Origin: a virus
DNA length: 64,000 nt
IMG/VR virus record: IMGVR_UViG_3300012357_000001
Span: 1-64,000 of that record
Reading direction: 5' to 3' (one strand)
A program made the position numbers and the translations under genes. Of the stretch, positions 6,201 through 61,480 are shown in pieces; position 1 is the first letter of the stretch; every line of letters begins with the position of its first letter. Under the pieces are notes generated by a model. The model made no database searches and was not told the origin of the DNA. It saw only the letters and a list, made by a program, of their open reading frames with translations.

Positions 6201-6469
6201 TCCTCTGCGTCGTCAGGCGCTACCTGGGCATCAGCCCGACCGAATGGGACTCGCTGGGCTGGGACTACCAGCAGATGTATCTGGACCACCTCGATGCGGA
6301 TGAGGAGATACCGTTCCACATCGATACGCCGACCCCCGGTGAGTCTTCGGGTGACGTAGGCCCGGCAACCAGGGAGAATGTGGACATCGGTGCGTCCGTG
6401 CTGGACCTTAACGCCATGCGCGCCGATCTCGAGGAGGCACGGAAGAGACGGAGAGGCGGTCCTGACTGA
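6197..6469 (+). CDS. tail assembly chaperone, -1 frame segment (gpT-like): frameshift extension or independently started
   Basis: The -1 frame relative to 5751..6200 is open from 6041 and protein-like (ISPTEWDSLGWDYQQMYLDHLDADEEIPF). GTG 6197 overlaps the upstream stop (GTGA). Ends 1 nt into the tape measure ATG. Confidence 0.5.
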   Translation: MILCVVRRYLGISPTEWDSLGWDYQQMYLDHLDADEEIPFHIDTPTPGESSGDVGPATRENVDIGASVLDLNAMRADLEEARKRRRGGPD

Positions 6470-9400
6470 TGTCGTTCGACGCTGGCAGCATCGAAGCCTC
6501 CCTGACCGTCCGCCTCGAACAGTTCAACCGCGACCTGGACAAGGCCGAGGCGCGTGTCCGCAAGATCGAGGCGGGCACGCACGAGGTCAAGGTATCCGCC
6601 GTCTTCGACACGGCCTCGATGACCCGGGCCCGCAAGATGTTCGCCGACCTGGACCAGCAGGTCTCCCGGGACGCGTCGATGCGGCTGCGCACCAGTCCGC
6701 AGGGGTCTGTGCTCGGCTCACTCAACGCGCTGTTCTCCCCGCACCCGGTAACGGGCTCTCCGACCGCCCAGCAGGCCGGGCAGCAGGGTCTGCTCGGCAA
6801 GATGTTCGCCACACCCGGCGGAGGCGGTGGCGGTACCGCCGGTGGTCCAGGAGGCGGCAACGCGGGCGGCGGCATCTTCGGCGGCGGCGGTTTCCTGTCC
6901 GGGATCCTCGGCCGGATCACGGGCGGCGGCGGGGCGTCCGACAAGGCTGCCATGGCCGCCGCCGCAGCGCAGACGAAGGCCGCCAAGGACATGGCGGACA
7001 ACTCCAAGCAGCAGACGTCACTGCTGCAGAAGGCACTGGCCGGAGACCGGTCCGGGGGTGGTTTCGCCAAGGGCCTGGCGGGCGGGATCGGTCCGGGGAT
7101 CCTCGGCATCGGGGCGAAGGCCACCGGGATCATCGCGGGGGGCGGGTCGCTGCTCGGCGCGCTACCCGCCACGTTCGCGGGCCTGGGCGCTCTCGGCATC
7201 GGCGGGATCGGGATCGGAGCCAGCGCGGCTCTGTTCAAGGGCATCCAGTCCCAGATCGCACCGGCCAGCGGGCTGTCCAGCCAGATCCAGGCGCAGCAGG
7301 CCGCCGGGCTCGGCTCGACCGCCGCGGGCGCCAAGACGATTGCCGGAGAGCAGAAGCAGCTCGCGGTCTCCCTGGCCGCCCTCAGCCCGGCCATGCGCTC
7401 CATCTACAACTCCGAGCAGCAGATCCAGAACACCTGGCAGAGTTTCACCGCCTCGTTCGCACCGCTGTTCGCCGGGGCCATGTCCTCGGTGGCCAGCGTG
7501 TTCCAGCGGCTGCAGCCCGCGCTCCAGGGCTTCTTCGGCAACGCGACCAAGCTTGTCCAGCCCTTTATACAAGGACTCGGCGACGTAGCACAGCAGATCC
7601 TGCCGCTGCTCGGCCAGGCGTTCGCCGCCGTCGCGCCGCTGATGCGCCCCATGCTCGACGGACTCGGCGGCCTGATCTCCGGACTGCTCCCCGGCTTGAT
7701 CACGCTGCTGAAGGGAGCGCAGCCAGCGGTAAACGCCCTGTTCGGAGGGCTGTCGATCATCGGCAAGGGGCTCGGGCAGATGTTCACAGCCTTCGCACCA
7801 GTGATCAAGGCTAGCGCTATTGTCCTGAATTCACTCCTGTCCGTCCTGTCCGCCCTGTTCCCGATCATCGGCCAGCTGGCAGCGATCTTCGCCTCGGCGC
7901 TGGCCCCTGTGTTCTCCGCCTTCGCCGGAACGATCAAGTCCCTGCTGCCGTTCCTGGCCATCGTCGGAAAGGTGCTGGCCTCCCTGGCGGGCGCCATCCT
8001 GGGTGATCTTGTATCCGCGTTCACCGCCCTGGCCCAGCTGCTGACCAACATCGCGCCCGGACTGAAGATCTTCGCGGACGTACTGTCGCAGGCCTTTGTC
8101 GTACTGGAGAACAGCGGGGTGTTCGCCGTGATCGGCAACGCCCTGGAGGCGATCGTCAAGCCGCTGGGTGCCTTGATCAATCTGCTTCTGCAGCAGCTGG
8201 CTCCGATACTGCCCGTGATCATCACTCTGATATCGCAGTTCGCCACGATCTTGGTCACCCTGCTGGCCGCCGGGCTGACCTCCATCCTGGAGGGGATCAC
8301 CTGGCTGCTGACCAAGATGCCCTGGCTGGTGCCGCTGATCGCCGCCGTGACCGCCGGGGTCTGGCTGTTCAACCTCGCCCTGGCGGCCAACCCCATCGGG
8401 CTGGTCGTGATCGCGATCGTCGGCCTGGTCGGGGCGATCACCCTGCTGGTCGTGCACTGGAAGCAGGTCTGGGGTGACATCAAGGCCTGGGCTGCGGACG
8501 CCTGGAACTTCATCTACAACGGCTTCGGCAAGTTCCTGCTGCCGCTGCTCGGGCCGGTCGGCCTGATCGCCCTGGGCGCCATCGAGCTCTACAAGCACTG
8601 GGCTCAGATCTGGGGTGACATCAAACAGGTCGGACTCGATTTCGGCCGGTGGTTCTGGGATGACTTCGGCGTGAAGATCATGCACTTCATCACCAAGACC
8701 GTGCCGAGCTGGTTCGACACGGGCGTGTCCGCGATCAAGACCGCCTGGGGCAAGATCGAACAGATCTTCAAGGACCCGATCAACTTCCTGATCAAGACCG
8801 TGTACGACAACGGGATCGAGCGGTTCTGGAACGACGTGATGGGTGCGATCGGCGGGCCCAAGCTGCCATACGTCCAACCGCTGGCTGCAGGCGGAATGAT
8901 CACGTCCGGCACCGGACCGACCGCCGACGACGTGCTGATCCGCGCCAGCCGCGGCGAGACCGTCGTGTCGGCCGCCCACTCGCGCATGCTCGCACCGTTG
9001 TTCGCGGCCGTGGGCGTTCCCGGTTACGCGACCGGCGGAGTCGTCGGCAGCATCCTCTCGTCCATCGCAACGGGCAGTCTGGGAGCCCTGTCCGGCGAGC
9101 TTCTCAAGCTGGTCGGCGTCGACTCGAACACGACCGGCGACCTGGCCAAGATGTTCACCCTGATCCCGAAGAAGATCGTAAGCACCGCCATGAGCTACGC
9201 CCTGGGCGTCCTGGGAGGCGGCGGCGGCAGCGGTGTCGGCCCGGGAGTCGGCAGCGGTGGCGGAGTGGCGGCGAACGCGGCGCTGGCGAGGGTGCTGTAC
9301 CCCGCGTGGGCGACCGGGCAGAACTGGATCAACTGGAACTACGTCGCGATGCGGGAGAGCGGCTGGTCCAACACCGCGATGAACCCGTCCTCCGGCGCGT

Positions 9401-9858
9401 ACGGCATCGCGCAGGCGCTGCCGTATACCAAGTACCCGAAGATGGGCCAGCCGCCGTTCGCCGGTGGCAGCTCCGATCCCGCCGTGCAGATCTGGTGGAT
9501 GGTCCAGTACATGCTGGGCCGGTACGGCGGCCCGGCCGGAGCGGCGTCGCACGAGAAGGCCTTCAACTGGTACGGCGGCGGGCTCGATGCGATCTTCAGC
9601 CACCCGACCGTGATCGGCGTCGGCGAGCGCGGACCCGAGGCGGTCAGCGTCACACCGCTGGCGTCCTACGGAGCGCGCGGCGGCGGCGGGATGGCCGGAG
9701 TCCTCGGACAGCTCATCGCGGCGGTCCGCAACGAGCGCCCGATGATCGGCACGTACCAGACGGCCTACTACGGCACCGGGGACACCGCCTACGCCCTGCG
9801 CGAGCTGACCAGCACACTGCGCATGACGGCGCTGCAGGCGACGGTGGTGGGACAGTGA
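6469..9858 (+). CDS. tape measure protein with C-terminal lytic transglycosylase (SLT-like) motif
   Basis: 1129 aa. Gly-rich N-terminal region, long Ala/Leu-rich hydrophobic centre, and the motif AMRESGWSNTAMNPSSGAYGIAQ. Position is typical of a tape measure gene. Confidence 0.9.
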   Translation: MSFDAGSIEASLTVRLEQFNRDLDKAEARVRKIEAGTHEVKVSAVFDTASMTRARKMFADLDQQVSRDASMRLRTSPQGSVLGSLNALFSPHPVTGSPTAQQAGQQGLLGKMFATPGGGGGGTAGGPGGGNAGGGIFGGGGFLSGILGRITGGGGASDKAAMAAAAAQTKAAKDMADNSKQQTSLLQKALAGDRSGGGFAKGLAGGIGPGILGIGAKATGIIAGGGSLLGALPATFAGLGALGIGGIGIGASAALFKGIQSQIAPASGLSSQIQAQQAAGLGSTAAGAKTIAGEQKQLAVSLAALSPAMRSIYNSEQQIQNTWQSFTASFAPLFAGAMSSVASVFQRLQPALQGFFGNATKLVQPFIQGLGDVAQQILPLLGQAFAAVAPLMRPMLDGLGGLISGLLPGLITLLKGAQPAVNALFGGLSIIGKGLGQMFTAFAPVIKASAIVLNSLLSVLSALFPIIGQLAAIFASALAPVFSAFAGTIKSLLPFLAIVGKVLASLAGAILGDLVSAFTALAQLLTNIAPGLKIFADVLSQAFVVLENSGVFAVIGNALEAIVKPLGALINLLLQQLAPILPVIITLISQFATILVTLLAAGLTSILEGITWLLTKMPWLVPLIAAVTAGVWLFNLALAANPIGLVVIAIVGLVGAITLLVVHWKQVWGDIKAWAADAWNFIYNGFGKFLLPLLGPVGLIALGAIELYKHWAQIWGDIKQVGLDFGRWFWDDFGVKIMHFITKTVPSWFDTGVSAIKTAWGKIEQIFKDPINFLIKTVYDNGIERFWNDVMGAIGGPKLPYVQPLAAGGMITSGTGPTADDVLIRASRGETVVSAAHSRMLAPLFAAVGVPGYATGGVVGSILSSIATGSLGALSGELLKLVGVDSNTTGDLAKMFTLIPKKIVSTAMSYALGVLGGGGGSGVGPGVGSGGGVAANAALARVLYPAWATGQNWINWNYVAMRESGWSNTAMNPSSGAYGIAQALPYTKYPKMGQPPFAGGSSDPAVQIWWMVQYMLGRYGGPAGAASHEKAFNWYGGGLDAIFSHPTVIGVGERGPEAVSVTPLASYGARGGGGMAGVLGQLIAAVRNERPMIGTYQTAYYGTGDTAYALRELTSTLRMTALQATVVGQ

Positions 9859-15357: not shown

Positions 15358-15756
15358 ATGACCGCACTGACGACGACCCAGGCTGCGGCCCTGCTGAAGG
15401 CCAGTCTGGGTGTGGCGACGCTGACCGCGTTCTCGGGGTCGGCGAACATCAGGCTGACGACCAACTCTCCGACCGCCTCGACGGCTGGGACACAACTCAC
15501 AGGTAGTGGATATACGTCCGGCGGCCAGGCGGTGTCCTTCAGCTCGACGTCCTCCAACTCGACCACCGGTCCGACTAGCACGATCTCCTGGACGAATTCG
15601 TCCGGTTCGACCTGGTCCATCGTCGGCATCGAGATCTGGGACTCCGCCGGAACCCCGATTCGCTGGTGGTACGGCACTTGGAACGGCCAGCCCATCTCCG
15701 TCGCCAACGGCAACACGTTCACCGTGTCCGCCGGAGCGGTAACCGTCCAGATCTAG
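15358..15756 (+). CDS. small minor tail protein
   Basis: Track ORF of 132 aa, Ser/Thr-rich. The pattern resembles small fibre-associated proteins of actinophages. Positional call. Confidence 0.5.
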   Translation: MTALTTTQAAALLKASLGVATLTAFSGSANIRLTTNSPTASTAGTQLTGSGYTSGGQAVSFSSTSSNSTTGPTSTISWTNSSGSTWSIVGIEIWDSAGTPIRWWYGTWNGQPISVANGNTFTVSAGAVTVQI

Positions 15757-15765
15757 GAGGTTGCC

Positions 15766-17127
15766 GTGTCCGTCAGCTTCGTTCGTACGACGGCCAACCG
15801 CCTCACGGGCGGCGGTATCTCGGGGATGACGCTGGGCATCAGCGCGTCGGCTGGGCAGTTCGTCGTGGTCGAGGGGTATCCGTCCGGGGGGTCGTCCAGC
15901 GTCCCGGTCAGCTCCATCACGGACAACGGCGGCGGCAACACCTGGGCCCTTCCGGGGAACTACACGGCCAGCAACCCTCCGGCCATCTACACGGGCGGCA
16001 GCGGCTGCTTCCTCGCCTACTGCAACGTGGCCCACTCGCTGTCCTCGGTCACGGTGAACATCCCGACGGCCAGCGAGCTGACCGTCTGCGTGTCCGTCTA
16101 CAACGGCGTCAAGACCTCGTTCCCGTGGCGTCAGGACACGACCGGCCTAGGACAGGGCCTCACGCTGAGCGTCCTGGGCGGCGGCCTGTGCGTCGGCGGA
16201 GCCAACACCAGCAGCGCCACCGCAATCGGCGGCCTGGCCACGCTGACCACACTCCACAACAACCTGGCCGGTTACGGCCTGGCGGGCCCCAACGAGAACG
16301 TCACCTTCAACTGGGGTCCGTCGCAGAACGCCCCTGCGGTGTTCGCGGAGTTCCTGGCCGCTTCCACGATCACGACCATCCACGGCACCGCCACGCTGCA
16401 CGACTTCGAGTCGATGAACCCGGATGCCCTGTCGAGCATCGCGGCCACATCTTCGATGACCGAGTCCGAGATGCTGTCGGCCATCTCGGGCGCCAACCCG
16501 CACGTGGCCTTCAGCGCGATCACACCGGATCAGAACGACTCCAACGGAATCCCGCTGATCCACGGCCTCACCTCGTACCACTATCCGCTCACGACATCGG
16601 TGACGTACGACTACTGGATGTCGATCCAGGACGGCCAGCTCGGAGCCGGTCTCTACGGCGCGGCCAGGAACAGCGGCCTGACGGTCTCCAGCAGCGTGCC
16701 GAAGTGGACGGACTCGGGGAGCAACACGCTCGGGATGGTGCGAAGCTATGGTGCCGACGCCAGCAGCAATCTGGCGAGCTTCACCACCGAGGCCGATGTG
16801 CCCGGCGCCACCGTATCCGTTGTGGTCACCGGATCGAACGCCACTGTCGTCGTGTATGGACAGTTCGACTTCTCGTCCCAGGCGCCATCCACCAACATCA
16901 CCTTTATCGGTTTCCTCAACTGGAACGGATCAGACCGCAGCCAGCAGGCGGTGTTCGAGGCCGGGGCGGTCACGGCCCGATCCTGCTGCGCGCGCTCCTG
17001 GCGGATCACCGGAGTAACGGCAGGAACATACGTCGCCAAACTCCGCGCCAGCTGTAGCGTCAATTCGGCCAACAACGTCGTGAATGTCTCGCACACCGGA
17101 CTGACCGCCATCGTGATCGATATGTGA
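15766..17127 (+). CDS. minor tail protein
   Basis: Track ORF with GTG start, 453 aa, beta-rich, in the tail-module context. Confidence 0.5.
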   Translation: MSVSFVRTTANRLTGGGISGMTLGISASAGQFVVVEGYPSGGSSSVPVSSITDNGGGNTWALPGNYTASNPPAIYTGGSGCFLAYCNVAHSLSSVTVNIPTASELTVCVSVYNGVKTSFPWRQDTTGLGQGLTLSVLGGGLCVGGANTSSATAIGGLATLTTLHNNLAGYGLAGPNENVTFNWGPSQNAPAVFAEFLAASTITTIHGTATLHDFESMNPDALSSIAATSSMTESEMLSAISGANPHVAFSAITPDQNDSNGIPLIHGLTSYHYPLTTSVTYDYWMSIQDGQLGAGLYGAARNSGLTVSSSVPKWTDSGSNTLGMVRSYGADASSNLASFTTEADVPGATVSVVVTGSNATVVVYGQFDFSSQAPSTNITFIGFLNWNGSDRSQQAVFEAGAVTARSCCARSWRITGVTAGTYVAKLRASCSVNSANNVVNVSHTGLTAIVIDM

Positions 17128-17187
17128 GCGCTGTCGGGACACGGCTGTGAAGAGCACAATGACCCGTAAGGATACGAGGAGGCAACG

Positions 17188-17871
17188 ATGGCGACTGACC
17201 GAGGCCTGGCGGGCGATGCGATGGGTATCGGCGCCGTACTGACGGATGGCGGCCGGGAGACGGGCAGCATCCAGATTCAGAAGTGGGACGCCGACCAGAG
17301 TCACTGGGTCGCCCGCAAGCTCTTCGGACATCTGGGCGCGGTCAAGCTGGAGGACGTGCCCGGACTGCAGCTGCCCCGGGCGAAGTTCCGGCAGTTCGGC
17401 GTCGAACCGTCCGAGGTGTACACCAAGGACGACTGCAACCTGATCACCAAGGCCGGGTGGGACCACTGCCTGCTGGCGGCCAACTGGAACGGCGGCACGC
17501 ACACCACGCAGTTCACAGCCTCGGTCGGCCGGATCGGCATCGGCACCGGCTCGACGACCCCGGCGTACGGCGACACCGCTCTGACCGCGATCACGAGCCT
17601 GACCGGCACCGGCAACTGGGTGCTGTGCGGCGCGGCGCCGACGATCGTCGACACCGCGGCCCCGGCCACCGTCGCCTTCACATCGAGCTTCACCTCCGCC
17701 TACGGGACCGGCGCCGCCTGGCAGGAGTTCGCCGTCGACTCCGGCACCGCGACCGCGGTCTCGAACACCGTGACCGCGACCGCCGACATGGTCAACCACG
17801 GCCTGGCCACGCCCGGCACCAAGGGCGCGAGCACGACCTGGACCGTCACGGTCACGCTGAGCTTCACGTAG
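17188..17871 (+). CDS. hypothetical virion-module protein
   Basis: RBS gaggagg upstream of ATG 17188. Track ORF with high GC3. Confidence 0.55.
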   Translation: MATDRGLAGDAMGIGAVLTDGGRETGSIQIQKWDADQSHWVARKLFGHLGAVKLEDVPGLQLPRAKFRQFGVEPSEVYTKDDCNLITKAGWDHCLLAANWNGGTHTTQFTASVGRIGIGTGSTTPAYGDTALTAITSLTGTGNWVLCGAAPTIVDTAAPATVAFTSSFTSAYGTGAAWQEFAVDSGTATAVSNTVTATADMVNHGLATPGTKGASTTWTVTVTLSFT

Positions 17872-17884
17872 ACAGGAGATCTTC

Positions 17885-18214
17885 ATGGTGGGCGTCGGAT
17901 TCCCGGCCGGAACCAACACATCGCAGGTTGTGGCCACCGCGCAGAACGCGCTGACCGTGCTGCGGAACGCGCTGGTGGACTGCCACAACTTCCGCCAGTG
18001 GCTGGCTGCGTACTCGGCCGCCGACCTGGAGGCGGCGCCGGTAAGCCTGGACGCCACGAGCGCGTCGGCCATCCTCAGCGCGTTCGCGGACGCCGACGCG
18101 CTGTACCAGCTCTACAGCACGGGCGCCTTGACCAGCCCGCCGTCCGGATATACCACGCCGGGCACGTACTCGTTCGGCGCGAGCCAGCGCACCGTCATCG
18201 GCCCGCTCAACTAA
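17885..18214 (+). CDS. hypothetical protein
   Basis: Track ORF with RBS-like aggaga upstream. Confidence 0.5.
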   Translation: MVGVGFPAGTNTSQVVATAQNALTVLRNALVDCHNFRQWLAAYSAADLEAAPVSLDATSASAILSAFADADALYQLYSTGALTSPPSGYTTPGTYSFGASQRTVIGPLN

Positions 18215-18226
18215 CGGGGCTGGAAC

Positions 18227-18805
18227 ATGTCCTTCCTGACCGGCACGAACTGCGAACTGATCTACGCGAACGACACGGCGTTCACGGCGAAGAACACCTT
18301 CACCACCGAGGTGACGATCGACGACCAGACCGGCGGCGGTCCGGCGGCCTTCCTGCCTCAGGGATTCGTCAACTACTCGCGCAAGGGCCTGCGGATCGAA
18401 GCGCGCGGCATCCTGTCGAGCACCGGCACCCCGACGTACACGCTCACCCTCAGATCGGGCACGATCGGCAACATCACGGCCGCGATCCTCCTCGGATCGG
18501 CGGCGCTGACGACCGCGACGACGATCACGAACAAGGGCTGGGAGTTCGAGGGCAGCATCATCTTCAAGGACCCGTCCGGATCCGGAGCGGCGAGCTCGGG
18601 CACCGGCGCTGGGATGATCACCTGTCCGGCCGGACTGGCCTCCCCCTTCACCTACGAACTGTGGGGCGGCGCGGCGCAGCCCGGCTCGTTCTCGACGTTC
18701 GACCCGACGATTCAGAACTTCCTCAACTTCAACGTGGCGTGCTCCGCCTCCTCGGCCTCTAACTCGATCCAGCTGCTGGAGTTCCTCGTCTACGGACTCA
18801 ACTGA
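18227..18805 (+). CDS. hypothetical beta-rich protein
   Basis: Track ORF in the tail-module context. Confidence 0.55.
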   Translation: MSFLTGTNCELIYANDTAFTAKNTFTTEVTIDDQTGGGPAAFLPQGFVNYSRKGLRIEARGILSSTGTPTYTLTLRSGTIGNITAAILLGSAALTTATTITNKGWEFEGSIIFKDPSGSGAASSGTGAGMITCPAGLASPFTYELWGGAAQPGSFSTFDPTIQNFLNFNVACSASSASNSIQLLEFLVYGLN

Positions 18806-18825
18806 CCGGGTGAGGCAGCGGTGAT

Positions 18826-21513
18826 ATGACCATCTCATCCGCCGCGGCCTTCGCCACCTCCACTGGAACCGCTCTCACGACCCAGGCCGTAACCGCGACT
18901 GCGGTGAACGACCTCTGGGTTGTCTTCATAGTCGTCAAGAGCGCGAGTATCACCACCACGGGAGTCTCCGGCGGAGGCGCCACGGGGTGGGTTGACGTAA
19001 CAGGGAACTGGCTGGACGGCACCGGCACGGCGAACGAGTCGGTCTGGATCGGCACCATGAACGCCACCGGTGCCCAGACGATCACCTTCACCTACTCGGG
19101 CAGCGTCACCGGCATCGCCATGGACATCGATGCCCATCCGTTCCACTCGACACTGGCCAGTCCCGTCTGGACTCCAGACGGTTTCGGCACCCTGTCCAAT
19201 GCATCATCGACCACTGTCAGCTTCCCCACGCTGGCGCCGTCGATCGACACCGTGAACGGCGAGCTCTACTGGGGCCACTCCCGTGTTCCGGGCAGCGCGG
19301 GCACGCCGCTGCCCTCCGGATTCGTGGCGAACAGCGACGCCAACGGCAACCCCGAGATGTACAACGTGGCGGTCACGGGGTCCGTGTCCCCGACGATGAC
19401 CCAGACGGCTGGCATATCGAACTCGATTGCCATCATGGTGTCCGACCACCTCGCTCTGGTACCCGCGCAGATGCCGCAGCGCCCCGTACTGCGGATCACC
19501 GGACCGTCGGCGCGGCGGCGTCCCGCACAGCCGCTGTCGTCGTCCATCCCCGTGGTCGCGGTCTCCCTGACGGACTCCGGCGCAGGATCGGACGCTCTCG
19601 CAGTCGCAGTGCCGCTGGCAGACACGGGTGCCGGAGCGGACAGCCTCGCACTCGCGACCGCCGTTGTCGACACCGGCGCGGGAACGGACTCCCTCACCCC
19701 GGCGGTAGCGTTCACCGACTCCGGTACCGCCGCCGACGCACTCGCTCTGTCGGTGCCCCTCGCAGACTCCGGCACGGCCGCGGACACGTCCGCCTTCACG
19801 ATCCTGATCGCCGATACCGGCGCCGGGAGCGACACACTCACCGTGGTCGCAACGATCCCGCTGCCGGACACCGGCGCCGGGTCGGACACGCTTGTCATCA
19901 CAGTGCCTCTAGCCGACGCTGGCACAGGCGCTGACGCGGTCTCAGCCGCTCCCGCTCTGCCTGACTCAGGAACCGGCTCAGACAGCCTCACAGCGCTTGT
20001 GGTGCCCTTGGCTGACTCGGGCACCGCGTCCAACACGATCGTCATCGCGATCGGCCTGGCGGACAGTGGAACCGGCGCCGACTCACTCACCGCCTCGATC
20101 ACCGTGGCACTGTCCGACTCCGGTACGGGCTCCGATGCGCTGTCGGTTACGATCCCCCTGACGGACAGCGGCACCGGCTCGGACACAGCCTCGGTGACCG
20201 CCACAGTGCCGCTGTCCGACACGGGCTCGGCCGCAGACACGGTCGTCATCGGCATCGCGGCGGCCGACTCGGGCACCGCGTCGGACGCTCTCGCGGTCTC
20301 GCCCAAGCTGTCGGACTCCGGCGCAGGCGCCGACACCTTCCTGACCGCCGTCGCCCTGTCCGACGTCGGCGCGGGATCCGACGCTCCCGCGGTCACCGTC
20401 CTGCTCCTCGACTCGGGCACCGGCCTCGACACGCTCGTGATCGGCACGCCGGTCGCCCTGGCGGACGCGGGCGCAGGCTCCGACTCGCTCACGGTCGTCG
20501 CCGCGGTCCCGCTGTCCGACACGGGCACGGGATCAGACGCCTCGGCCGTCGTGGTGCAGATGACGGACACCGGAGCCGGTTCTGACGGCCTCGCGGCCAC
20601 GGTCCTGCTGCCTGACACGGGCACGGCGTCGGACGCGCTCGTTGCCGCCATAGGGCTGTCGGACGGCGGCACCGGGGCGGACGCGACTGCGGTCATGTTC
20701 GGAGTCACGGACACCGGCGTCGGCTCGGACGCCGTTGTGATCGCGTTCCTGCTTCCCGACGCGGGCAGTGCCGCCGACGCACTCGCCCTGTCGGTTCCTC
20801 TTACCGATGCGGGATCGGCCGCGGACGCACTCACACCTGCAGTCGCATTCGTGGTCTCGGGCGCCGGAGCCGACGTCATGGCGATCCCCGCGGCCACAGT
20901 GCTGCTCGGAGACGCCGGTACCGCGGCCGACACCGTTGTGATTGCCCTCCACGTCGCCGACGTCGGTACCGGGGTCGACACCCTGTTCGTTCCGGCGCCG
21001 GGCTTCACCGGCACGGTGACGTGGCGAGCCGGTGCACTGCCGCGCAGATGGCAGACGGCGGCGCAGCGCACGCGATGGGCAGCCGAGCCTGTTGCGGGCA
21101 GATGGACAATAAAGGCGACCCAGCGGTGGGCTGCCAAGCCCGCCAGCGCGAGATGGAAGGCGGTGCTCGTGGCCGGTTTCACGCCGATCGCCTCGATCAG
21201 CCTGCAGGAGATCAACATCCTGTGGACGTCAGACCTGGCCGGTACGGTCGTCGACCCGACGGTCCTGCCGCTCGTCGTGCAGATGGCGTTCCCGGTCTCC
21301 AGTGGCAATCTGAACGCGCCAGCCCAGCCGGTGACCTGGTATGCAGCCAGTTGGCTGCCGTCCACCACCGTCAAGGGGTGGGTCGCTCAGTGCCTGGTGG
21401 GCCCGGGTGGCATGCTGACGCTGACGGCCGGACAGAGCTACGACGTGTGGTCGCAGATCCAGGGGTCACCGGAGATCCCCAAGGTCTTCGCGGGCGTCCA
21501 GCAGGTGTACTGA
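18826..21513 (+). CDS. tail-module protein with about 29 tandem 16-18-aa D-[ST]-G-x-[GA]-x-D repeats
   Basis: 895-aa track ORF. The repeat block spans aa 244-723, with globular N- and C-terminal domains on either side. Confidence 0.8.
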   Translation: MTISSAAAFATSTGTALTTQAVTATAVNDLWVVFIVVKSASITTTGVSGGGATGWVDVTGNWLDGTGTANESVWIGTMNATGAQTITFTYSGSVTGIAMDIDAHPFHSTLASPVWTPDGFGTLSNASSTTVSFPTLAPSIDTVNGELYWGHSRVPGSAGTPLPSGFVANSDANGNPEMYNVAVTGSVSPTMTQTAGISNSIAIMVSDHLALVPAQMPQRPVLRITGPSARRRPAQPLSSSIPVVAVSLTDSGAGSDALAVAVPLADTGAGADSLALATAVVDTGAGTDSLTPAVAFTDSGTAADALALSVPLADSGTAADTSAFTILIADTGAGSDTLTVVATIPLPDTGAGSDTLVITVPLADAGTGADAVSAAPALPDSGTGSDSLTALVVPLADSGTASNTIVIAIGLADSGTGADSLTASITVALSDSGTGSDALSVTIPLTDSGTGSDTASVTATVPLSDTGSAADTVVIGIAAADSGTASDALAVSPKLSDSGAGADTFLTAVALSDVGAGSDAPAVTVLLLDSGTGLDTLVIGTPVALADAGAGSDSLTVVAAVPLSDTGTGSDASAVVVQMTDTGAGSDGLAATVLLPDTGTASDALVAAIGLSDGGTGADATAVMFGVTDTGVGSDAVVIAFLLPDAGSAADALALSVPLTDAGSAADALTPAVAFVVSGAGADVMAIPAATVLLGDAGTAADTVVIALHVADVGTGVDTLFVPAPGFTGTVTWRAGALPRRWQTAAQRTRWAAEPVAGRWTIKATQRWAAKPASARWKAVLVAGFTPIASISLQEINILWTSDLAGTVVDPTVLPLVVQMAFPVSSGNLNAPAQPVTWYAASWLPSTTVKGWVAQCLVGPGGMLTLTAGQSYDVWSQIQGSPEIPKVFAGVQQVY
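19555..20994 (+). repeat. in-frame coding tandem repeats, about 29 units of 48-54 nt
   Basis: Units counted from the translated repeat D-[ST]-G-x-[GA]-x-D-x-L-x-V-x-V/I-P-L-x within 18826..21513. Confidence 0.8.
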
Positions 21514-21515
21514 GG

Positions 21516-21842
21516 ATGTTCGAGCTCGGGATATCCGCACTTCAAGCCAGTGCGGGCGCGATGCTGTGCCTGACCATCGTCCTGGTGCTCACCGGGAAGC
21601 TGGTCTGGCACAAACAACTGAAGGACGTCCGACAGGACTGCGACAAGCGGGTTGAGCAGTCGAACAACGAGGCGGCCCGCTGGCGCATCGCCTACGAATA
21701 CAGCGAGGAGGCGCGCAGGATCGATGCACGGCACGCAGAGCACCTACTGGAACTGGGCTATGCCAGCAACCGGATCATCGCTGCGCTACCCATCGCGCCC
21801 AAGGAGGAGCCAGATGCGTCTGCGCCTGCCGTGGAAAGATAA
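21516..21842 (+). CDS. membrane protein (N-terminal TM helix)
   Basis: M166 of track ORF 21021..21842, 3 nt after the upstream stop. TM segment AGAMLCLTIVLVLTGKLVW. Confidence 0.5.
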   Translation: MFELGISALQASAGAMLCLTIVLVLTGKLVWHKQLKDVRQDCDKRVEQSNNEAARWRIAYEYSEEARRIDARHAEHLLELGYASNRIIAALPIAPKEEPDASAPAVER

Positions 21843-22068
21843 GGAGGATGATTCCGGCCTACTGCAGGAGGGCCGGGATGGGATGCAAGAGGCTACGACC
21901 GCAGAGAGGGTCGCAAAGGAAGCGGTGGCCGAGGCCAAGGCCCGAGAGCCGGAAGTGCAGCGCCTGCTGAAGAGGGTCCGGGAGATGCAGCGGGTGAACC
22001 ACATCGGGGAACGCGTGGCAAAGGCGCTGCGCGACGGATACGAAGGAGAGGGGCAGCATGGTCATTGA
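21814..22068 (+). CDS. hypothetical protein
   Basis: RBS aaggagga at 21801-21808, then ATG 21814 (M55 of track ORF 21652..22068). Confidence 0.45.
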   Translation: MRLRLPWKDKEDDSGLLQEGRDGMQEATTAERVAKEAVAEAKAREPEVQRLLKRVREMQRVNHIGERVAKALRDGYEGEGQHGH

Positions 22069-22426
22069 CCTCCTGAAGTCTGGGTTCTTCGTCGCATTCT
22101 TCTGCTCGGTCGCGTACATCATCGGCTACAGCATCCTCGCCCCCTGGTGGAAAAACCCCTGGGGCCGCGGCATGGTGTCCTTCTCCGCAGCCAGCCAGCT
22201 GCTGCTGCTGCCGACCCTGCTGCACATCACGTTCGGTATCAACTTCAGCAGCGGATTCGCCGCCTGGTACTACATCGTGTCGCTCTACCTGGACGGGCTG
22301 ATCGAGGTATACCGACTCCGATGGGCCTACCGCATCCAGCAGCACGACACCCCGCGCGGACGCAGGCAGAACGAAGTGAACCGGGTCAGGGCAGATCACG
22401 ATGAGAGTGATCCGCTGAACCGTTGA
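22058..22426 (+). CDS. integral membrane protein (3-4 TM helices)
   Basis: Track ORF with several hydrophobic helices. Lies at the end of the tail block, so a holin-like or exclusion role is possible. Confidence 0.6.
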   Translation: MVIDLLKSGFFVAFFCSVAYIIGYSILAPWWKNPWGRGMVSFSAASQLLLLPTLLHITFGINFSSGFAAWYYIVSLYLDGLIEVYRLRWAYRIQQHDTPRGRRQNEVNRVRADHDESDPLNR

Positions 22427-22448
22427 CGTCAGCGGTTAGCATGTGGAT

Positions 22449-22712
22449 ATGCGCAGGCAGGATGTGGACCGCACCGTCGCGGCGATGGAGACGCTGCTGG
22501 AGTCCGGCGTCGAGCAGGTCGGTGTGCGCCGGGTGCTGCGGCTGCTCGGCCGCGACGTGCCCGACCGCGAGGGCGCACCAGAACCGCAGCCACGGCTCGA
22601 CCCGCGGGCGGATCCGATAACCGGCTGCCTGCCGGTGACAGCACAGGGAGGCCGGAATGACGGCTCAGGCAAGGAAGAGCACCGGGTCCGCCAAGGCGGC
22701 TTCCGCGGCTAA
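22449..22712 (+). CDS. possible small protein
   Basis: ATG 22449. High GC3 only in the first 40 or so codons. Overlaps the next gene by 56 nt. Confidence 0.3.
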   Translation: MRRQDVDRTVAAMETLLESGVEQVGVRRVLRLLGRDVPDREGAPEPQPRLDPRADPITGCLPVTAQGGRNDGSGKEEHRVRQGGFRG

Positions 22713-22866
22713 GGCCAAGAAGGCGCAGCCCGAGCTCGAGCCCACGCACCGGGTGATCCGGGAGATCGTGATCGACGGCGTTCCGTTCGCGGTCGACGAC
22801 CTCGTGGCCCTGGACGGGCTGAACGCGGCCGAGCTGGAGAGCCACGGCTACGTGCTGAAGGTGTGA
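22657..22866 (+). CDS. small protein with Lys/Ala-rich N-terminus
   Basis: Track ORF preceded by cacagggagg (22642-22651). Last + strand gene before the strand switch. Confidence 0.5.
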   Translation: MTAQARKSTGSAKAASAAKAKKAQPELEPTHRVIREIVIDGVPFAVDDLVALDGLNAAELESHGYVLKV

Positions 22867-22873
22867 ACGACGA

Positions 22874-22943
22874 GCTCCCCGGGCGGGTCTCGAACCCGCT
22901 CCCTCCGCGGCGCGCACCGCTTCGGGCCTCCAACTGCCGGGGA
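22874..22943 (-). other. tRNA-like element (acceptor stem + T arm, no canonical anticodon arm)
   Basis: On the - strand, TCCCCGG...GCGGG-TTCGAGA-CCCGC-CCGGGGA-G: a 7-bp acceptor pairing and a 5-bp T stem with a TTCGAGA loop. Lies between convergent genes. Confidence 0.4.
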
Positions 22944-22957
22944 CTGCAGCCTGCTGC

Positions 22958-23935
22958 TTACAGGGCACCCTGTTCGACCAGGTGCTCCCTGACCATGGCG
23001 TAATTGTCCGCGATGGCGTCCAACTCCACCCGCTCTCGTCCTTCGCGGTCTAGACGCACCTGGCGCAGGTCGTCGTCCAGGTGCTCGCGGATCTTCCCGT
23101 CCACCAGGTCGGTCAGCACCTGGGGCTCCAGCGCGTCCAGCTCCCAGCAGTCGGTACCGTACTGCTCGACGTAGCCGTCGAACCGGCTGTCGGTGGCCTT
23201 GGCGTAGTTGGGCGGCGGGTTGTACTGCTCAACCTGGTCCATCGTCAGCGCGATGCGCTCGACGTAGCACCGGCTGCCGAACAGTGCCAGCCGCTCCTGG
23301 ATGTCCCGGGGGATGTCGAGCCCGGTCGGGTCGTGGTCGCCCAGGTACAGGATCCGGGTCTTCACGCTGTCCCGCTCGAACCTCTTCAGCCGCAGGGCGG
23401 CGTCGTGGATCAGCGAGTGCGAGGGCGAGCCCTTGCACGCGGTGTAGCTGACGTCCAGCGGCGCCGCCGCACGGGCGATGACGTCGACCAGCGCGTCCTT
23501 CTCCACCCAGGCCTCCACGTGCTCGGGCTGGCCGTCCCAGTGGGTGATGCCGTACTGCTGCGCGATCGAGTTGACCGCACGCTCGGGGCTGGACCATCCG
23601 AAGTCGCCACCGGCCGACGCCCGGCCGCGGTCCTCGATGTGGTCCCAGTCGACGAGGCCGGAGACACGGCCGTCGGCGATCAGGTCGCCGAGCCACTTGT
23701 AATTCTGCTGGCAGTTCTTGGTGCCGGTGCCGTCCGGGTTGCCGGGGGTCCGCTTGCCAGCGGTGAAGTAGCGCTCATCGGGGAACGCGTCGGTGGCGAT
23801 GAACCGGTAGTAGAGCTGGCGCAGCGTCAGCCGCAGCCCCTGGTCCGCATACTGGTCGCAGATAGCGTCGGCGGCCTGCACGACCGCCAGTCCGGCGGGG
23901 GTGAACGACCGCATCTCATATCGGATCTTGCTCAT
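22958..23935 (-). CDS. Spo11 / topoisomerase VI subunit A-like protein (5Y-CAP + Toprim), orphan
   Basis: Three motifs in canonical order: LTLRQLYYRF (aa 37-46), AWVEKDALV (aa 142-150) and YLGDHDPTGLDI (aa 197-208). Start-associated motif at 23942-23953. Confidence 0.7.
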   Translation of the reverse strand: MSKIRYEMRSFTPAGLAVVQAADAICDQYADQGLRLTLRQLYYRFIATDAFPDERYFTAGKRTPGNPDGTGTKNCQQNYKWLGDLIADGRVSGLVDWDHIEDRGRASAGGDFGWSSPERAVNSIAQQYGITHWDGQPEHVEAWVEKDALVDVIARAAAPLDVSYTACKGSPSHSLIHDAALRLKRFERDSVKTRILYLGDHDPTGLDIPRDIQERLALFGSRCYVERIALTMDQVEQYNPPPNYAKATDSRFDGYVEQYGTDCWELDALEPQVLTDLVDGKIREHLDDDLRQVRLDREGRERVELDAIADNYAMVREHLVEQGAL

Positions 23936-58113: not shown

Positions 58114-59835
58114 ATGGTGAACCTGCTGGCCGAGTGGGCGCGGCGGATGGACCCCGAGGCGGTCGTCGAGAAGGCATCGGCCGTCTGGCGTCGGGAGGCC
58201 CGTCCGGAGCAGCGGCTGCCCGAAGGCGACTGGCGAGTCGTCTACTACCAGGGCGGCCGTGGCAGCGGGAAGACCCGGTCGGGATCCGCCGGACTTGCCG
58301 AGCTGATCGAAGCTGACATGGACTTCGATCCGCCCGGCGAGTACGGCATCATCGCACCCACCTACCGGGACGCCTGGACGGTGTGCGTCGAGGGCGAGGC
58401 CGGGATCCTGCGGGCGCTGGGCACCACGGCCGGTGAGGTCAAGCACGGCAAGTCCCAGTCGGTCGAATACGCCTACCGCAGCTACGGGGAGATCGGCCTG
58501 CGCAGCGGGCACGTGATCTACGTCGACTCGGCCGACGACGGCGCACTGCGCGTCCAGGGCAAGAACCTGCGGGCGGCGTGGGGCGACGAGATCGGCCTGT
58601 GGAAGCGCTGGCAGGTCGCCTGGGAGGAGTCGGTCCGGTTCGCCGTCCGTAAGGGCGTGTCAAAGATCATCGTCACCGGAACGCCGAAGGCCTCCCGTCC
58701 GGCCCGCAAGCTGGTGCGTCGGCTGATCCGCGCCGGACGCGGCGACGACGAGTTCAGCGACGGGCCGGTGATCGTGCGGAAGCTGCGCACGATCGACAAC
58801 ATCCTGAACCTGTCGGAGTCGTTCTTCCGATCGGTGGTCGGCGCGGCCAAGGGCACCCGGCTCGAGCGCCAGGAGCTCGAGGGCGAGCTGCTCGACGACG
58901 TCGCCAACGCGCTGTGGACGCGCGAGATGCTCGAGGAGGCGCAGAGCCCCGGCATCGGCGAACCGGGCGGTCCCGAGTACCTGACCTCGATCAAGATGGG
59001 CGTCGACCCGTCCGACGGCACCGAGGAGTCCGATGAGCAGGCGTACACCGTCGTCGGCCTCAACCCGATGCGGGACCAGATCTACGTCGTCGAGTCCTGG
59101 GGTGGGCAGGAGGCCCCGGCACCGTTCGCCCGCCGGTTCCTGATCCGTGCGGCACAGCTGGACGCCACCGTCGTCGTGGAGAAGAACCACGGCGGCGAGT
59201 GGATGATGCAGCTGATCGAGCAGATCCAGCGCGGCCTGCTCAAAGAGGGGGTCATCAAGAAGCGGGTGCGCGTGGAGAAGATCCACGCCAGCGAGTCCAA
59301 GCGCACCCGCGCCGAGCCGATCTCCGGGCTGTACGAACGCGGCATCGTCAAGCACTGCCAGAAGGTCAACCGCTTCCAGATGGTGGACCTGGACACCGGC
59401 GAACTGCAGTGGCGCGAGGAGACGGAGCGGTTCACCGAGCTGGAGGACCAGCAGGCCACCTTCACCGGTGCGCACGGCGAGCGGTCCCCCGACCGGCTCG
59501 ACTCCCTCGTGTGGGCGGCCAGCCCGTTCCTGTCGCTGAGCTTCGGCCCGGTGCAGCGCGCGCTCGTGGCCAAGTGGGCGCGCAACGGCGGCCCGCTGGC
59601 GGACGCCGTGCCGCTCGAGCGCGAGCGCGGAGGCGACCCCATCGCCGCGCCGAACCCCGAGGACGACCGCCTCGCGGTGCCCCGGGGGGTGCGCCGCATG
59701 CAGCTCCAGCAGGCGGCTGCGGCGGGCGGCTTCGGAGACCTGGACGCCTGGGGTCCGCAGGACCCTGACGATGCACCCGAGCACGGGCGGCGCGGCAACG
59801 TGCGCTCGTGGTCGACCGACTCATCGCCGTTCTAA
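58114..59835 (+). CDS. terL: terminase large subunit
   Basis: 573 aa. Walker A motif YYQGGRGSGKT, Walker B-like region, C-terminal nuclease-like half. Lies directly upstream of the portal gene. Confidence 0.9.
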   Translation: MVNLLAEWARRMDPEAVVEKASAVWRREARPEQRLPEGDWRVVYYQGGRGSGKTRSGSAGLAELIEADMDFDPPGEYGIIAPTYRDAWTVCVEGEAGILRALGTTAGEVKHGKSQSVEYAYRSYGEIGLRSGHVIYVDSADDGALRVQGKNLRAAWGDEIGLWKRWQVAWEESVRFAVRKGVSKIIVTGTPKASRPARKLVRRLIRAGRGDDEFSDGPVIVRKLRTIDNILNLSESFFRSVVGAAKGTRLERQELEGELLDDVANALWTREMLEEAQSPGIGEPGGPEYLTSIKMGVDPSDGTEESDEQAYTVVGLNPMRDQIYVVESWGGQEAPAPFARRFLIRAAQLDATVVVEKNHGGEWMMQLIEQIQRGLLKEGVIKKRVRVEKIHASESKRTRAEPISGLYERGIVKHCQKVNRFQMVDLDTGELQWREETERFTELEDQQATFTGAHGERSPDRLDSLVWAASPFLSLSFGPVQRALVAKWARNGGPLADAVPLERERGGDPIAAPNPEDDRLAVPRGVRRMQLQQAAAAGGFGDLDAWGPQDPDDAPEHGRRGNVRSWSTDSSPF

Positions 59836-59881
59836 CCTACCGGCGATATCCTGCAGACAGCGATCACCAGCGAGGAGAGCC

Positions 59882-61480
59882 GTGGCCAAGGCGCAGAGCA
59901 GTGCAGCAGCGTCGGATCCGCCAGCGTCCGGTTCGGCGAAGATCTACGCGTTCCCCGACATCAAGCCGTCCGCGAAGCGGGATCTGCTCGGCAAGGAGCT
60001 GGGCACGCAGTTCGACCTGGGCCAGCGGCTGTTCGCCTGGTACGGCGAGGGCGACGTCTTCGACTACGGCGAGTACACAGCCCGGGACATGAAGGCGATG
60101 TTCCGCCGTGACGGCATCTGCTCGGCCGTCGAGTCGGTGCTCACCCTGCCGATCCGCGAGGCCGCATTCTCGATCGAGCCCACCAAGGGCGACTCGGGCG
60201 AGACCGCGTTCGTGCGCAGCGTGATCATGACTCCGGACACCGAGGGCGGCATGGCGACCCCCGTGCACGAGCTGGTCGGGCAGGTCACCAGCGCGCAGAT
60301 CTACCGACGGGCGTTCTTCGAGAAGATCTGGAAGGTCCGCGAGGACGACGGCAAGATCATATACGACAAGATCGCCTTCCGTCCGCCCGCCACCTGCCAG
60401 GCCCGGTACAACTCGCGCACCGCCGTCCCCAACGGATTCCGTCAACAGGTCTGGCTGTTCGGCGGCAACCTGATGCTCACCAAGGAGCAGAAGGTCCCCG
60501 GCTACGTCGACATCCCGAAGGTCCGCTCCTTCATCCACACCCACGGCAAGTACCGCGAGCCGCTGATCGGGGTGTCGGAGATGGACGTCAGCTACTGGGT
60601 GTATCAGACCAAGATGAAGCTGCTGTTCCTCTGGTACTACTTCCTGGAGAACCAGGCGATGCAGCGCATCATCGTCTACGGGTCCGACCAGCCCGAGGCC
60701 AACGCACACGCCGACGACATCGCCCAGCTGAAGGGCTCCGGCGTGGTCGGTCTCGTCCACCCGCCGGACGCCAAGAAGGCCTTCGAGGTCATCCCGCAGC
60801 CCACTGACGCCGGGAAGTTCTTCTCCGACGCCATGATGTTCCTGGAGGGCTGGCAGACGCAGAGCGTGCTCGCCGGATTCATGGGCCTGGTCGGCGGCGC
60901 GACCGCCGGGAAGGGCGCGTACTCGCTGTCCCAGGACCAGAGCGCGTTCTACCTCAAGTCCCGGCAGGCCGTCGCCAAGGAGATCGGCGAATCGCTGAGC
61001 TACGACGTCATCCGACCGCTGGTGATGCTGAACTTCGGACCCGGCGCGGCGTTCCCCACCTGGAAGTTCGGCCCGCTGCAGGACGAGCAGATGCAGGCGC
61101 TGCTCACTCTGTTCGGACAGCTGGCCGCCGCGCCCGCGCTGCACATCCCCGTGCCGGTGCTCGACCTGATCACCGAGCGGATGGCCTCGATCCTGCAGCT
61201 CGACCTCGACCAGGTGCACCAGGCTCTGGTGTCCACCGTCCAGCAGCGCTCCGAGCAGATGGCCGCCCAGCCGCCCCCGGGGATGCCCGCCTCGGCCGCC
61301 GCCGGGCTCGGCCAGGTGCAGGGCCTTGTCGGCGCGGCGCAGAACCTGACCAAGCAGGCCGCCCAGAAGCAGGGCGGCGTGCCCGAGGGGCTGCGCGGCG
61401 TGCCCGCCGGTCCTCCGGCGCCGCCGCCGCAGCCGTCCCGCCTCGGCGCGGGCGGCCAGAACCCGCCGCGGTCGCCGTGA
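59882..61480 (+). CDS. portal protein
   Basis: RBS gaggagag, then GTG 59882 (residue 38 of the track ORF). 532 aa. Lies between terL and the MuF-like gene. Confidence 0.7.
   Translation: MAKAQSSAAASDPPASGSAKIYAFPDIKPSAKRDLLGKELGTQFDLGQRLFAWYGEGDVFDYGEYTARDMKAMFRRDGICSAVESVLTLPIREAAFSIEPTKGDSGETAFVRSVIMTPDTEGGMATPVHELVGQVTSAQIYRRAFFEKIWKVREDDGKIIYDKIAFRPPATCQARYNSRTAVPNGFRQQVWLFGGNLMLTKEQKVPGYVDIPKVRSFIHTHGKYREPLIGVSEMDVSYWVYQTKMKLLFLWYYFLENQAMQRIIVYGSDQPEANAHADDIAQLKGSGVVGLVHPPDAKKAFEVIPQPTDAGKFFSDAMMFLEGWQTQSVLAGFMGLVGGATAGKGAYSLSQDQSAFYLKSRQAVAKEIGESLSYDVIRPLVMLNFGPGAAFPTWKFGPLQDEQMQALLTLFGQLAAAPALHIPVPVLDLITERMASILQLDLDQVHQALVSTVQQRSEQMAAQPPPGMPASAAAGLGQVQGLVGAAQNLTKQAAQKQGGVPEGLRGVPAGPPAPPPQPSRLGAGGQNPPRSP

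Follow-up and report, generated by a model that had tools for sequence, protein, structure and literature searches.

Tandem D-x-G-x-G-x-D units in an 895-residue phage tail-module protein: a candidate stalk between exchangeable and conserved ends

Triple beta-spiral shafts, known from the adenovirus fibre and from reovirus sigma1, consist of pseudo-repeats of about 15-16 residues in which hydrophobics alternate and a Gly/Pro turn is conserved; they join the attachment end to the binding domain, and the number of repeats sets the length of the fibre. In RTX proteins (PF00353), the nonapeptide GGxGxDxUx occurs twice per coil, and the coil has 18 residues. Another unit, consisting of one D-x-G-x-G-x-D head and a short hydrophobic strand, is repeated in tandem with a period of about 16-20 amino acids (aa) in three proteins of cultured phages, Patience gp38, FF47 gp25 and REQ1 Orf64, and also in the subject of this report, the 895-aa product of a gene in IMG/VR virus record IMGVR_UViG_3300012357_000001 (positions 1 to 64,000 of that record, the 64,000-nucleotide stretch that is called the window throughout). 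Patience gp38 appears as 'minor tail subunit' in Table 1 of a study that used virion mass spectrometry (PMC4324244). Like the 895-aa gene, the genes for gp38 and gp25 are the last minor tail genes before the lysis cassette. The three proteins of Patience, FF47 and REQ1 have about 7-12 units, compared with 29 in the window protein, and possess neither its beta-sandwich N-terminal domain (N-domain), nor its tail of Arg/Trp-containing nonapeptides (RW tail), nor its C-terminal domain (C-domain). In gp38 and gp25, about 7-8 units at the N-terminus are followed by a glycine-rich domain, whereas the window protein ends in the RW segment and a 112-aa domain. Judged by sequence, the window protein shares its repeat with Patience gp38 and FF47 gp25 but is not their orthologue.

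With moderate confidence, the product is interpreted as a fibre-like accessory protein of the tail, with the array as a putative stalk between an exchangeable N-terminal binder and a conserved C-terminal core tied to the virion or to an adaptor; the part of this interpretation that concerns polarity, namely anchoring by the C-terminus, is less certain. A place in the tail is indicated because the gene is the last large one after those of the tape measure, Dit-like and minor tail proteins and before that of the holin, and because Patience gp38 and FF47 gp25 bear the same motif in the same slot. A fibre is suggested by the partner domains of other repeat-bearing proteins, of which Laminin_G_3, GH16 and apiosidase are typical of phage fibres, and a spacer role by arrays that flank an enzyme domain (P0027) and by a different repeat, SGxGTL, that substitutes for the array at two other loci (L014 and L015). 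The 29 units would build a long stalk, all-beta and strongly acidic, to which every unit contributes a seven-residue Asp/Gly turn and then a strand of 8-10 residues with one hydrophobic face. The job of this stalk would be geometric, holding the N-terminal beta-sandwich at a set distance from the conserved C-terminal end, where the RW nonapeptides and the 112-aa domain, the invariant core of the locus, most likely attach the protein to the virion, whether directly or in the role of an adaptor. The length of the stalk would evolve by insertion and deletion of whole units, and the sequence of the units would drift quickly with the motif kept.

The repeat array and its predicted structure

The array was located with a regular expression and with a position-specific scan, both of which give 29 consecutive units: 22 of 16 aa, one of 17, five of 18 and one of 19. 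A first-pass annotation of this DNA had placed about 29 units, mostly of 16 and some of 17-18 aa, at 19555-20994 (aa 244-723); the count and the prevailing lengths stand, but the 19-aa unit has to be added and both ends were off by a few residues, the true span being aa 250-727. The consensus of the units in the window is D-[ST]-G-[TA]-G-[SA]-D-[AT]-L-x-V-x-V-P-L-x. Asp is found at position 1 and at position 7 in 28 of the 29 units each, Gly at position 3 in all 29, and Gly at position 5 in 20 (Ala in the others); positions 9, 11, 13 and 15 are hydrophobic, and Pro occupies position 14 in ten units. These column counts agree with the D-x-G-x-x-x-D head and alternating hydrophobic tail that the first-pass annotation had described. 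The added residues of the longer units are placed within the hydrophobic tail, where the alternation is kept. With 56 Asp, no Glu, a single Lys and no Arg, the array has a net charge of about -55. The units are diverged at the DNA level, as had been noticed at the outset (mean inter-unit identity 57%; longest exact DNA repeat 18 nucleotides (nt)), and Tandem Repeats Finder called no array in the DNA of the repeat region.

The suspicion that GC-rich, low-complexity sequence produces the periodicity as a side effect, or that the open reading frame (ORF) was mis-called, has next to no probability. It could appeal to the G+C content of the window (67-69%) and to the presence of a 702-aa ORF on the other strand of the repeat region. 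Yet the 29 motif heads observed far exceed the number in every shuffle, both of the whole protein (1000 shuffles; mean 4.8, maximum 13) and of the repeat region alone (mean 5.7, maximum 14), and the pattern is beyond chance. The G+C content at third codon positions (GC3) of 18826..21513 is 0.83, which fits the coding pattern of the window and favours the plus frame; the same ORF was predicted by gene callers in four public assemblies, and GAGG sits 11-14 nt 5' of its ATG. The full-length protein has 250 homologues, and the register of the units is kept between relatives. Together, GC3, homologues and shuffles effectively refute this explanation. The antisense ORF (19266..21374, minus strand), which overlaps the whole repeat region and is rich in Ser, Ala, Pro and Val, was rejected as a gene: GC3 backs only the plus frame, and the ORF most likely owes its existence to a complement of the repeats that is GC-rich and has few stop codons.

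The AlphaFold2 model of the full-length monomer has a mean predicted local distance difference test score (pLDDT) of 57.6, with 50-80 in the array and less than 45 in the C-terminal part, and it shows beta-strands about every 8 residues of the array. A prediction confined to the repeat (aa 244-480), for which 30 array segments were aligned, brought no improvement, with a pLDDT of 55 and a predicted template modelling (TM) score of 0.41. Foldseek comparison of the full model with the PDB gave nothing with E<=1e-3, and the matches of the repeat-only model were all non-significant too. The long alignments from these comparisons were to beta-solenoids (phage depolymerase, GH87, PL6, LpxA/LpxD, RTX751, FapC and SRRP) and were not used as evidence of fold. 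For the parallel beta-helix, Pfam gave no match to PF12708 or PF13229, and the Foldseek alignments with depolymerase, GH87 and PL6 had E values of 0.07-1.5 and TM scores of about 0.1; the unit has 16-19 aa, compared with some 22 residues or more in a three-sheet coil of that fold. From the models, only a predicted beta-rich character of the array is taken. The initial proposal of a beta-solenoid or rod of defined length is thus weakly backed: beta-strands are predicted throughout, but at a pLDDT of 55-58 and with no significant PDB match.

Within these bounds, the sequence pattern fits a unit made of a seven-residue Asp/Gly turn and one amphipathic strand, possibly kinked near Ala13 or the Pro. 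The low monomer confidence of the array (pLDDT 55-58) would be compatible with an obligate oligomer. The rod would measure about 14 nm at 4.8 Å per coil with one unit per coil, or about 38 nm at an adenovirus-like rise of about 13 Å per unit. If the Asp columns stack, bound cations or counter-ions at the array are plausible, given its charge of about -55. When mutual information was computed for positions of adjacent units, as a means of telling parallel stacking from hairpins, only same-position pairs stood out, which shared ancestry of the units within a protein explains equally well.

The repeat family, the flanking modules and close relatives

No Pfam family matched the whole 895-aa protein at E<=1, Phage_fiber (PF03335), Phage_fiber_2 (PF03406), PTR (PF12789) and collagen (PF01391) being among those without a match. 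NCBIfam gave no meaningful match either; a match to SdrD (E 0.66) was rejected as reflecting composition, and so were designed helical repeat proteins in the PDB (E 0.017 and 0.25). Sequence searches of the PDB with the full protein, with a three-unit profile, and with Patience gp38 and REQ1 Orf64 found nothing below E 0.01. PHROGs returned two weak matches, phrog_11333 of unknown function (1.5e-9) and phrog_1696, 'major tail protein' (2.3e-6). The first-pass remark that the repeat was not recognised as a named family therefore holds for Pfam, NCBIfam and the PDB, with only these two weak matches in PHROGs. Literature searches with motif strings, and of the general fibre-repeat and mycobacteriophage cryo-electron microscopy literature, found no description of the repeat.

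First described as a feature of one tail protein, the unit is in fact widespread. A full-length search of 5.8 billion proteins gave at least 250 matches, and nearly all of the 120 that were listed bear the motif. The modal period of the family is 18 aa (700 units collected), followed by 16, 19 and 20 aa, and the consensus of the 18-mers is D-[STA]-G-[TAS]-G-[AST]-[DE]-[AT]-L-x-V-x-A-x-V-[AP]-L-[ATS]. Across about 1200 family units, D1, G3, G5 and D/E7 are near-invariant and the remainder drifts. Partner domains of the repeat-bearing proteins include Laminin_G_3, GH16, apiosidase/DUF4038 and Beta_helix, and in P0027 and similar proteins the arrays flank an enzyme domain of about 660 aa on both sides. 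All five contigs that were examined are phage, and in all three loci checked (P0027, P0059 and P0017) the repeat gene closes the late operon beside the lysis genes. Carriers in cultured phages are Patience gp38, FF47 gp25, REQ1 Orf64 and a giant protein of SP-15; the tblastn E values were 7e-8 for REQ1 and 4e-5 to 5e-4 for mycobacteriophages (which also include the Madruga and Maco phages). A tblastn search with an array of the 18-mer type from P0021 came back empty, the probable reason being that low-complexity filtering had masked the array.

The module at the N-terminus is a mobile extracellular beta-sandwich. An exhaustive HMMER search of 1.84 billion representative proteins found 451 relatives of it, which stand alone (about 230 aa), occupy either terminus of a longer protein, or are repeated in tandem up to five times in proteins that exceed 2000 aa; TIG, FN3, phosphoesterase or RHS domains are further constituents of such large proteins. 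By Foldseek, several minor tail proteins of Mycobacterium phages match the N-domain in their N-terminal parts, and the N-domain has no match in Pfam, PHROGs or the PDB, the last searched with an N-domain profile as well. It is probably a binding module for a ligand or glycan. The basic, Pro-rich linker that follows is kept in L005 (71% identity) and also in L006, where the N-domain is unrelated, so the boundary of module recombination is placed upstream of the linker.

Both flanks are unrelated to the repeat, as first reported, but the C-terminal one is not a single domain: it comprises RW nonapeptides and a separate 112-aa domain. Trp residues at aa 733, 742, 751, 760, 768 and 777 (spacing 9, 9, 9, 8 and 9) are preceded by Arg in five of six cases, and the segment is basic whereas the array is acidic. 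Homologues have 3-5 RW units. The same tail, again with 3-5 units, precedes the C-domain in P0001-P0004, P0122, P0127 and P0128 and closes the fibre gene that lies upstream in L014 and L015. The homologues of the C-domain are mostly stand-alone proteins of 113-131 aa, the gene for which is always the last of the tail module before the lysis genes (L014 10001-10345, L015 1864-2211, L007 8960-9358). In L015 the fibre gene with the RW tail stops at 1860 and the C-domain gene begins at 1864; in L014 one gene lies between the two. Both fibre genes (L014 5815-9315, L015 1-1860) encode the SGxGTL repeat, with a unit of about 15-16 aa (...A-[AM]-[LM]-S-G-[LVT]-G-T-L-[SG]-A-x-P...), in the place that the D-x-G-x-G-x-D array holds in the window protein, ahead of the same RW tail and C-domain. 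Either type of repeat, it seems, can precede one and the same C-terminal module. Pfam and PHROGs contained no family for aa 724-895, aa 784-895 or the stand-alone homologues P0134 and P0138; specifically, the C-domain matched neither Caudo_TAP (PF02413) nor Peptidase_S74 (PF13884), and a C-domain profile found nothing below E 0.01 in the PDB.

Four relatives that share the baseplate genes of the window (L005, L006, L019 and L007) were compared with it (Table 1). Because identity forms a gradient along the protein and L007 retains only a C-domain gene, of 132 aa, the C-terminal domain is identified as the conserved core of the locus; no RW-tailed fibre was found in the portion of the L007 locus that was read. 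By this sequence comparison, the conserved end of the 895-aa protein is the C-terminus rather than the N-terminus. The window and L005 have 29 units each, with the long units in almost the same order, and L006 has 32; the arrays of the window and L006 are collinear except for one indel of one unit and one of two units. Related phages thus differ in whole-unit steps, as the comparison of repeat counts proposed in the first-pass annotation brings out, and the array seems to evolve fast in sequence with its motif kept, its length changing by occasional whole units. The accompanying suggestion, that recombination keeps altering the copy number, is a weak one: exact identity between units does not exceed 18 nt, and four assemblies (JGI, NCBI, ENA and Logan), possibly not independent samples, have the gene without a single difference in its DNA (0/2688 mismatches).

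Table 1. Features of the 895-aa gene and its surroundings in the window, with amino acid identity to relatives
Feature	Coordinates	Strand	Residues and remarks	Identity to relatives
895-aa modular tail-module protein gene	18826..21513	+	stop codon included; ATG start; ORF list, GC3	
N-terminal beta-sandwich module (N-domain)	18826..19455	+	about aa 1-210; AlphaFold2 all-beta, pLDDT about 80-90	55% in L005; replaced by unrelated domain in L006 and L019
Basic Pro-rich linker	19456..19572	+	aa 211-249; ...PQRPVLRITGPSARRRPAQPLSSSIPVV...; R-I-T-G-P-S-A-R-R-R-P...; pLDDT <50	
29 tandem units of D-x-G-x-G-x-D plus amphipathic beta-strand (repeat array)	19573..21006	+	aa 250-727	37-50%
RW segment: junction GFTGTVTW and five 9-aa x-x-x-P-x-x-x-R-W units	21007..21174	+	aa 728-783	57-70%
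Conserved 112-aa C-terminal domain (C-domain)	21175..21510	+	aa 784-895; 47 homologues	79-89% to the four closest relatives, similar to baseplate genes
Tape measure protein	6469..9858	+	many PHROG tape-measure families, best E 9.8e-29; start of tail-tip genes	
Putative holin	22058..22426	+	PF23778 Phage_holin_2, 34.5 bits vs cutoff 32; end of tail module	
Neighbouring structural proteins				75-88%

Polarity, location and possible metal binding

Several observations weigh against an accessory stalk mounted by its C-terminus. AlphaFold2 gave no confident fold for the array (pLDDT 55-58), and the stalk is argued from sequence pattern and analogy; and phage fibres are usually anchored by the N-terminus. 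The N-domain is 60-62% identical in P0011, P0013 and P0014, the remaining sequence of which differs, and this also speaks for a fibre of conventional polarity, with the N-domain on the tail, the repeats as shaft, and the C-domain as a distal tip or adhesin or as a fused assembly protein or intramolecular chaperone acting on the RW tail. Such a fibre is the main rival, a genuine but minor possibility. In L015, where the C-domain gene begins 4 nt after the stop of the RW-tailed fibre gene, the order is the classic one of a fibre gene followed by an assembly or tip protein (as in lambda and Mu Tfa and T2 gp38), and a fused C-domain would resemble the C-terminal intramolecular chaperones of K1F endosialidase and T5 pb1. 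However, among phages with the same baseplate genes it is the N-domain that is swapped and the C-domain that is kept at 83-89% identity, the opposite of what is expected of anchor and tip; the C-domain gene is present in L007, where no RW-tailed fibre was seen in the stretch of the locus that was read; the N-domain is also found in cellular surface proteins with TIG, FN3 and RHS domains, and in P0011, a carrier whose gene adjoins a capsid gene, so it does not behave as a baseplate-specific anchor; and the C-domain has no Pfam match, Caudo_TAP and Peptidase_S74 included. A protein outside the virion, expressed late, either lysis-associated or released to bind the envelope, and acting on the host wall or on neighbouring cells, is not favoured and appears distinctly improbable, even though the 895-aa gene abuts the lysis cassette and some homologues have GH16 and apiosidase domains. 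The position of the repeat gene after the endolysin gene in REQ1, P0027 and P0017 would fit such a lysis-associated protein and is a further difficulty for the stalk. Against it, the 895-aa gene lies on the strand of the tail genes, 20 nt from the preceding gene; the annotation of both Patience gp38 and FF47 gp25 is minor tail protein; depolymerases that are carried on virions and have enzyme domains of this kind are common; and no signal peptide or membrane segment was noticed by inspection, no predictor having been run.

The strict conservation of D1, G3, G5 and D7 is a last objection, as it suggests that the array may be more than a passive spacer. The array itself could be a Ca2+-dependent, RTX-like beta-roll or solenoid, the stacked Asp/Gly turns of which would bind metal ions and, by way of these or directly, cell-wall polymers, a view that is compatible with a fibre but rather unlikely. 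It would account for the near-invariance of D1, G3, G5 and D/E7 over about 1200 units, 700 of them 18-mers, for the net charge of about -55 without any Arg, and for the modal family period of 18 aa, which equals one RTX coil; the only long Foldseek alignments, none of them significant, are to solenoids that include RTX751. On the other hand, Pfam gave no RTX match at E<=1, there is one Gly/Asp motif per 16-18 residues and not two nonapeptides, AlphaFold2 yields no confident solenoid, and the non-acidic SGxGTL repeat can replace the array before the same C-terminal modules, which argues for a generic spacer. A more ambitious version, put forward tentatively and at about the same low level of belief, would make the unit a new metal-stabilised beta-solenoid or beta-roll, independent of RTX though like it, with one Asp/Gly turn per 16-18-residue coil, that serves phages of several bacterial phyla as a stalk variable unit by unit; the fibre of the window would be mounted in reverse, with the C-domain as virion-bound adaptor, the Arg/Trp nonapeptides as the docking tail for it, and the N-terminal module as distal binder. 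The stalk of moderate confidence set out at the beginning, between an exchangeable binder and a conserved C-terminal core, remains the preferred interpretation.

Genomic setting and comparison with known systems

The window also holds genes for a major head protein (7-651, cut by the window start), the large terminase (58114-59835) and the portal (59771-61480). After the tape measure gene come Dit-like and minor tail genes, a gene for a fibre-like 590-aa protein and several small genes, and then the 895-aa gene, which shares the strand of the tail genes and starts only 20 nt after the gene before it. On its 3' side are a 108-aa gene, a DUF7620 gene and the Phage_holin_2 gene; the replication genes downstream of the holin are on the opposite strand. 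The 895-aa gene is therefore the last large gene of a siphophage tail module before the holin, and its initial assignment to that module is confirmed by the tape measure and minor tail genes upstream and the holin after it. A search for near-identical DNA with 17000-23000 among 50,697 phage records gave no match, and the sole relative among species-representative genomes is on a contig of a Kineosporiaceae metagenome-assembled genome. This relative and the G+C content given above indicate an actinobacterial host, and the evidence points to a siphophage of about 70 kb that infects soil Actinomycetota.

Some other proteins of the tail region deserve mention. The C-terminal region of the tape measure protein (aa ~938-1081) matches transglycosylase/endolysin PHROGs (phrog_12661 and phrog_971) and is probably a cell-wall-hydrolysing domain. 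A 132-aa protein (15358-15753) matches PF23140, 'Podophage GP4 fiber I protein gp80', scarcely over the curated cutoff (29.0 vs 27 bits), despite the siphophage module. Two tail proteins, of 453 aa (15766-17127) and 192 aa (18227-18805), are only 55-65% and 48-77% identical between relatives, compared with 75-88% for their neighbours, and may likewise take part in host recognition. On visual inspection, the 453-aa protein seems to begin with a pattern like that of the N-domain.

Host range is poorly understood in phages of Actinomycetota, where most 'minor tail proteins' have no assigned domains. The repeat would label a class of at least 250 proteins, including proteins of Mycobacterium, Rhodococcus and Bacillus phages, and the modular layout suggests a simple grammar of fibres: a binder that can be exchanged, a stalk of one or another repeat type, an RW tail, and a C-domain that is conserved and either fused or separate. 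This grammar could guide annotation and engineering, for example by N-domain swaps or stalk trimming. A Ca2+-dependent solenoid, if true, would be a new repeat fold, and a mere spacer would extend the list of fibre shafts in a useful but ordinary way; structural novelty of the unit is possible but unproven, and the unit is a useful annotation handle.

The known systems resemble this protein in part only. Like the RTX beta-roll, the array is tandem and acidic, with a Gly/Asp-rich turn and then a short beta-strand, but it has a single D-x-G-x-G-x-D per 16-18 residues and neither a Pfam match at E<=1 nor a significant structural match. Triple beta-spirals are similar in unit length and alternation but have a different motif, and solved fibre shafts (adenovirus, sigma1, T4 gp5C and gp12) gave no PDB sequence or profile match and no Foldseek match at E<=1e-3. 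Compared with systems of a tail fibre and an assembly or tip protein or a fused chaperone (lambda and Mu Tfa, T2 gp38; K1F and T5), the C-domain gene is likewise directly downstream of the fibre gene in L015 and is fused to it in the window, but the C-domain has no match in Pfam, PHROGs or the PDB and persists in L007 without a recognisable partner fibre. The giant protein of Bacillus phage SP-15 (SP15_064, 56443-69648, annotated 'pectate lyase', about 4400 aa) has many D-x-G-x-G-x-D heads with hydrophobic strands and aligns with aa 248-720 (tblastn E 8e-8, 23% identity); it is probably the protein represented by phrog_11333 (E 1.5e-9). It differs from the window protein in a longer and irregular period of about 20-25 aa, in being rich in Cys and Glu, and in having a Firmicute host, and because of its repeats the motif reaches phages of Firmicutes. 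Repetitive shafts in phage fibres are of a known kind, and proteins with this repeat have already been deposited as 'minor tail protein' or 'hypothetical', but this particular D-x-G-x-G-x-D unit appears in none of the libraries used and in none of the literature searched.

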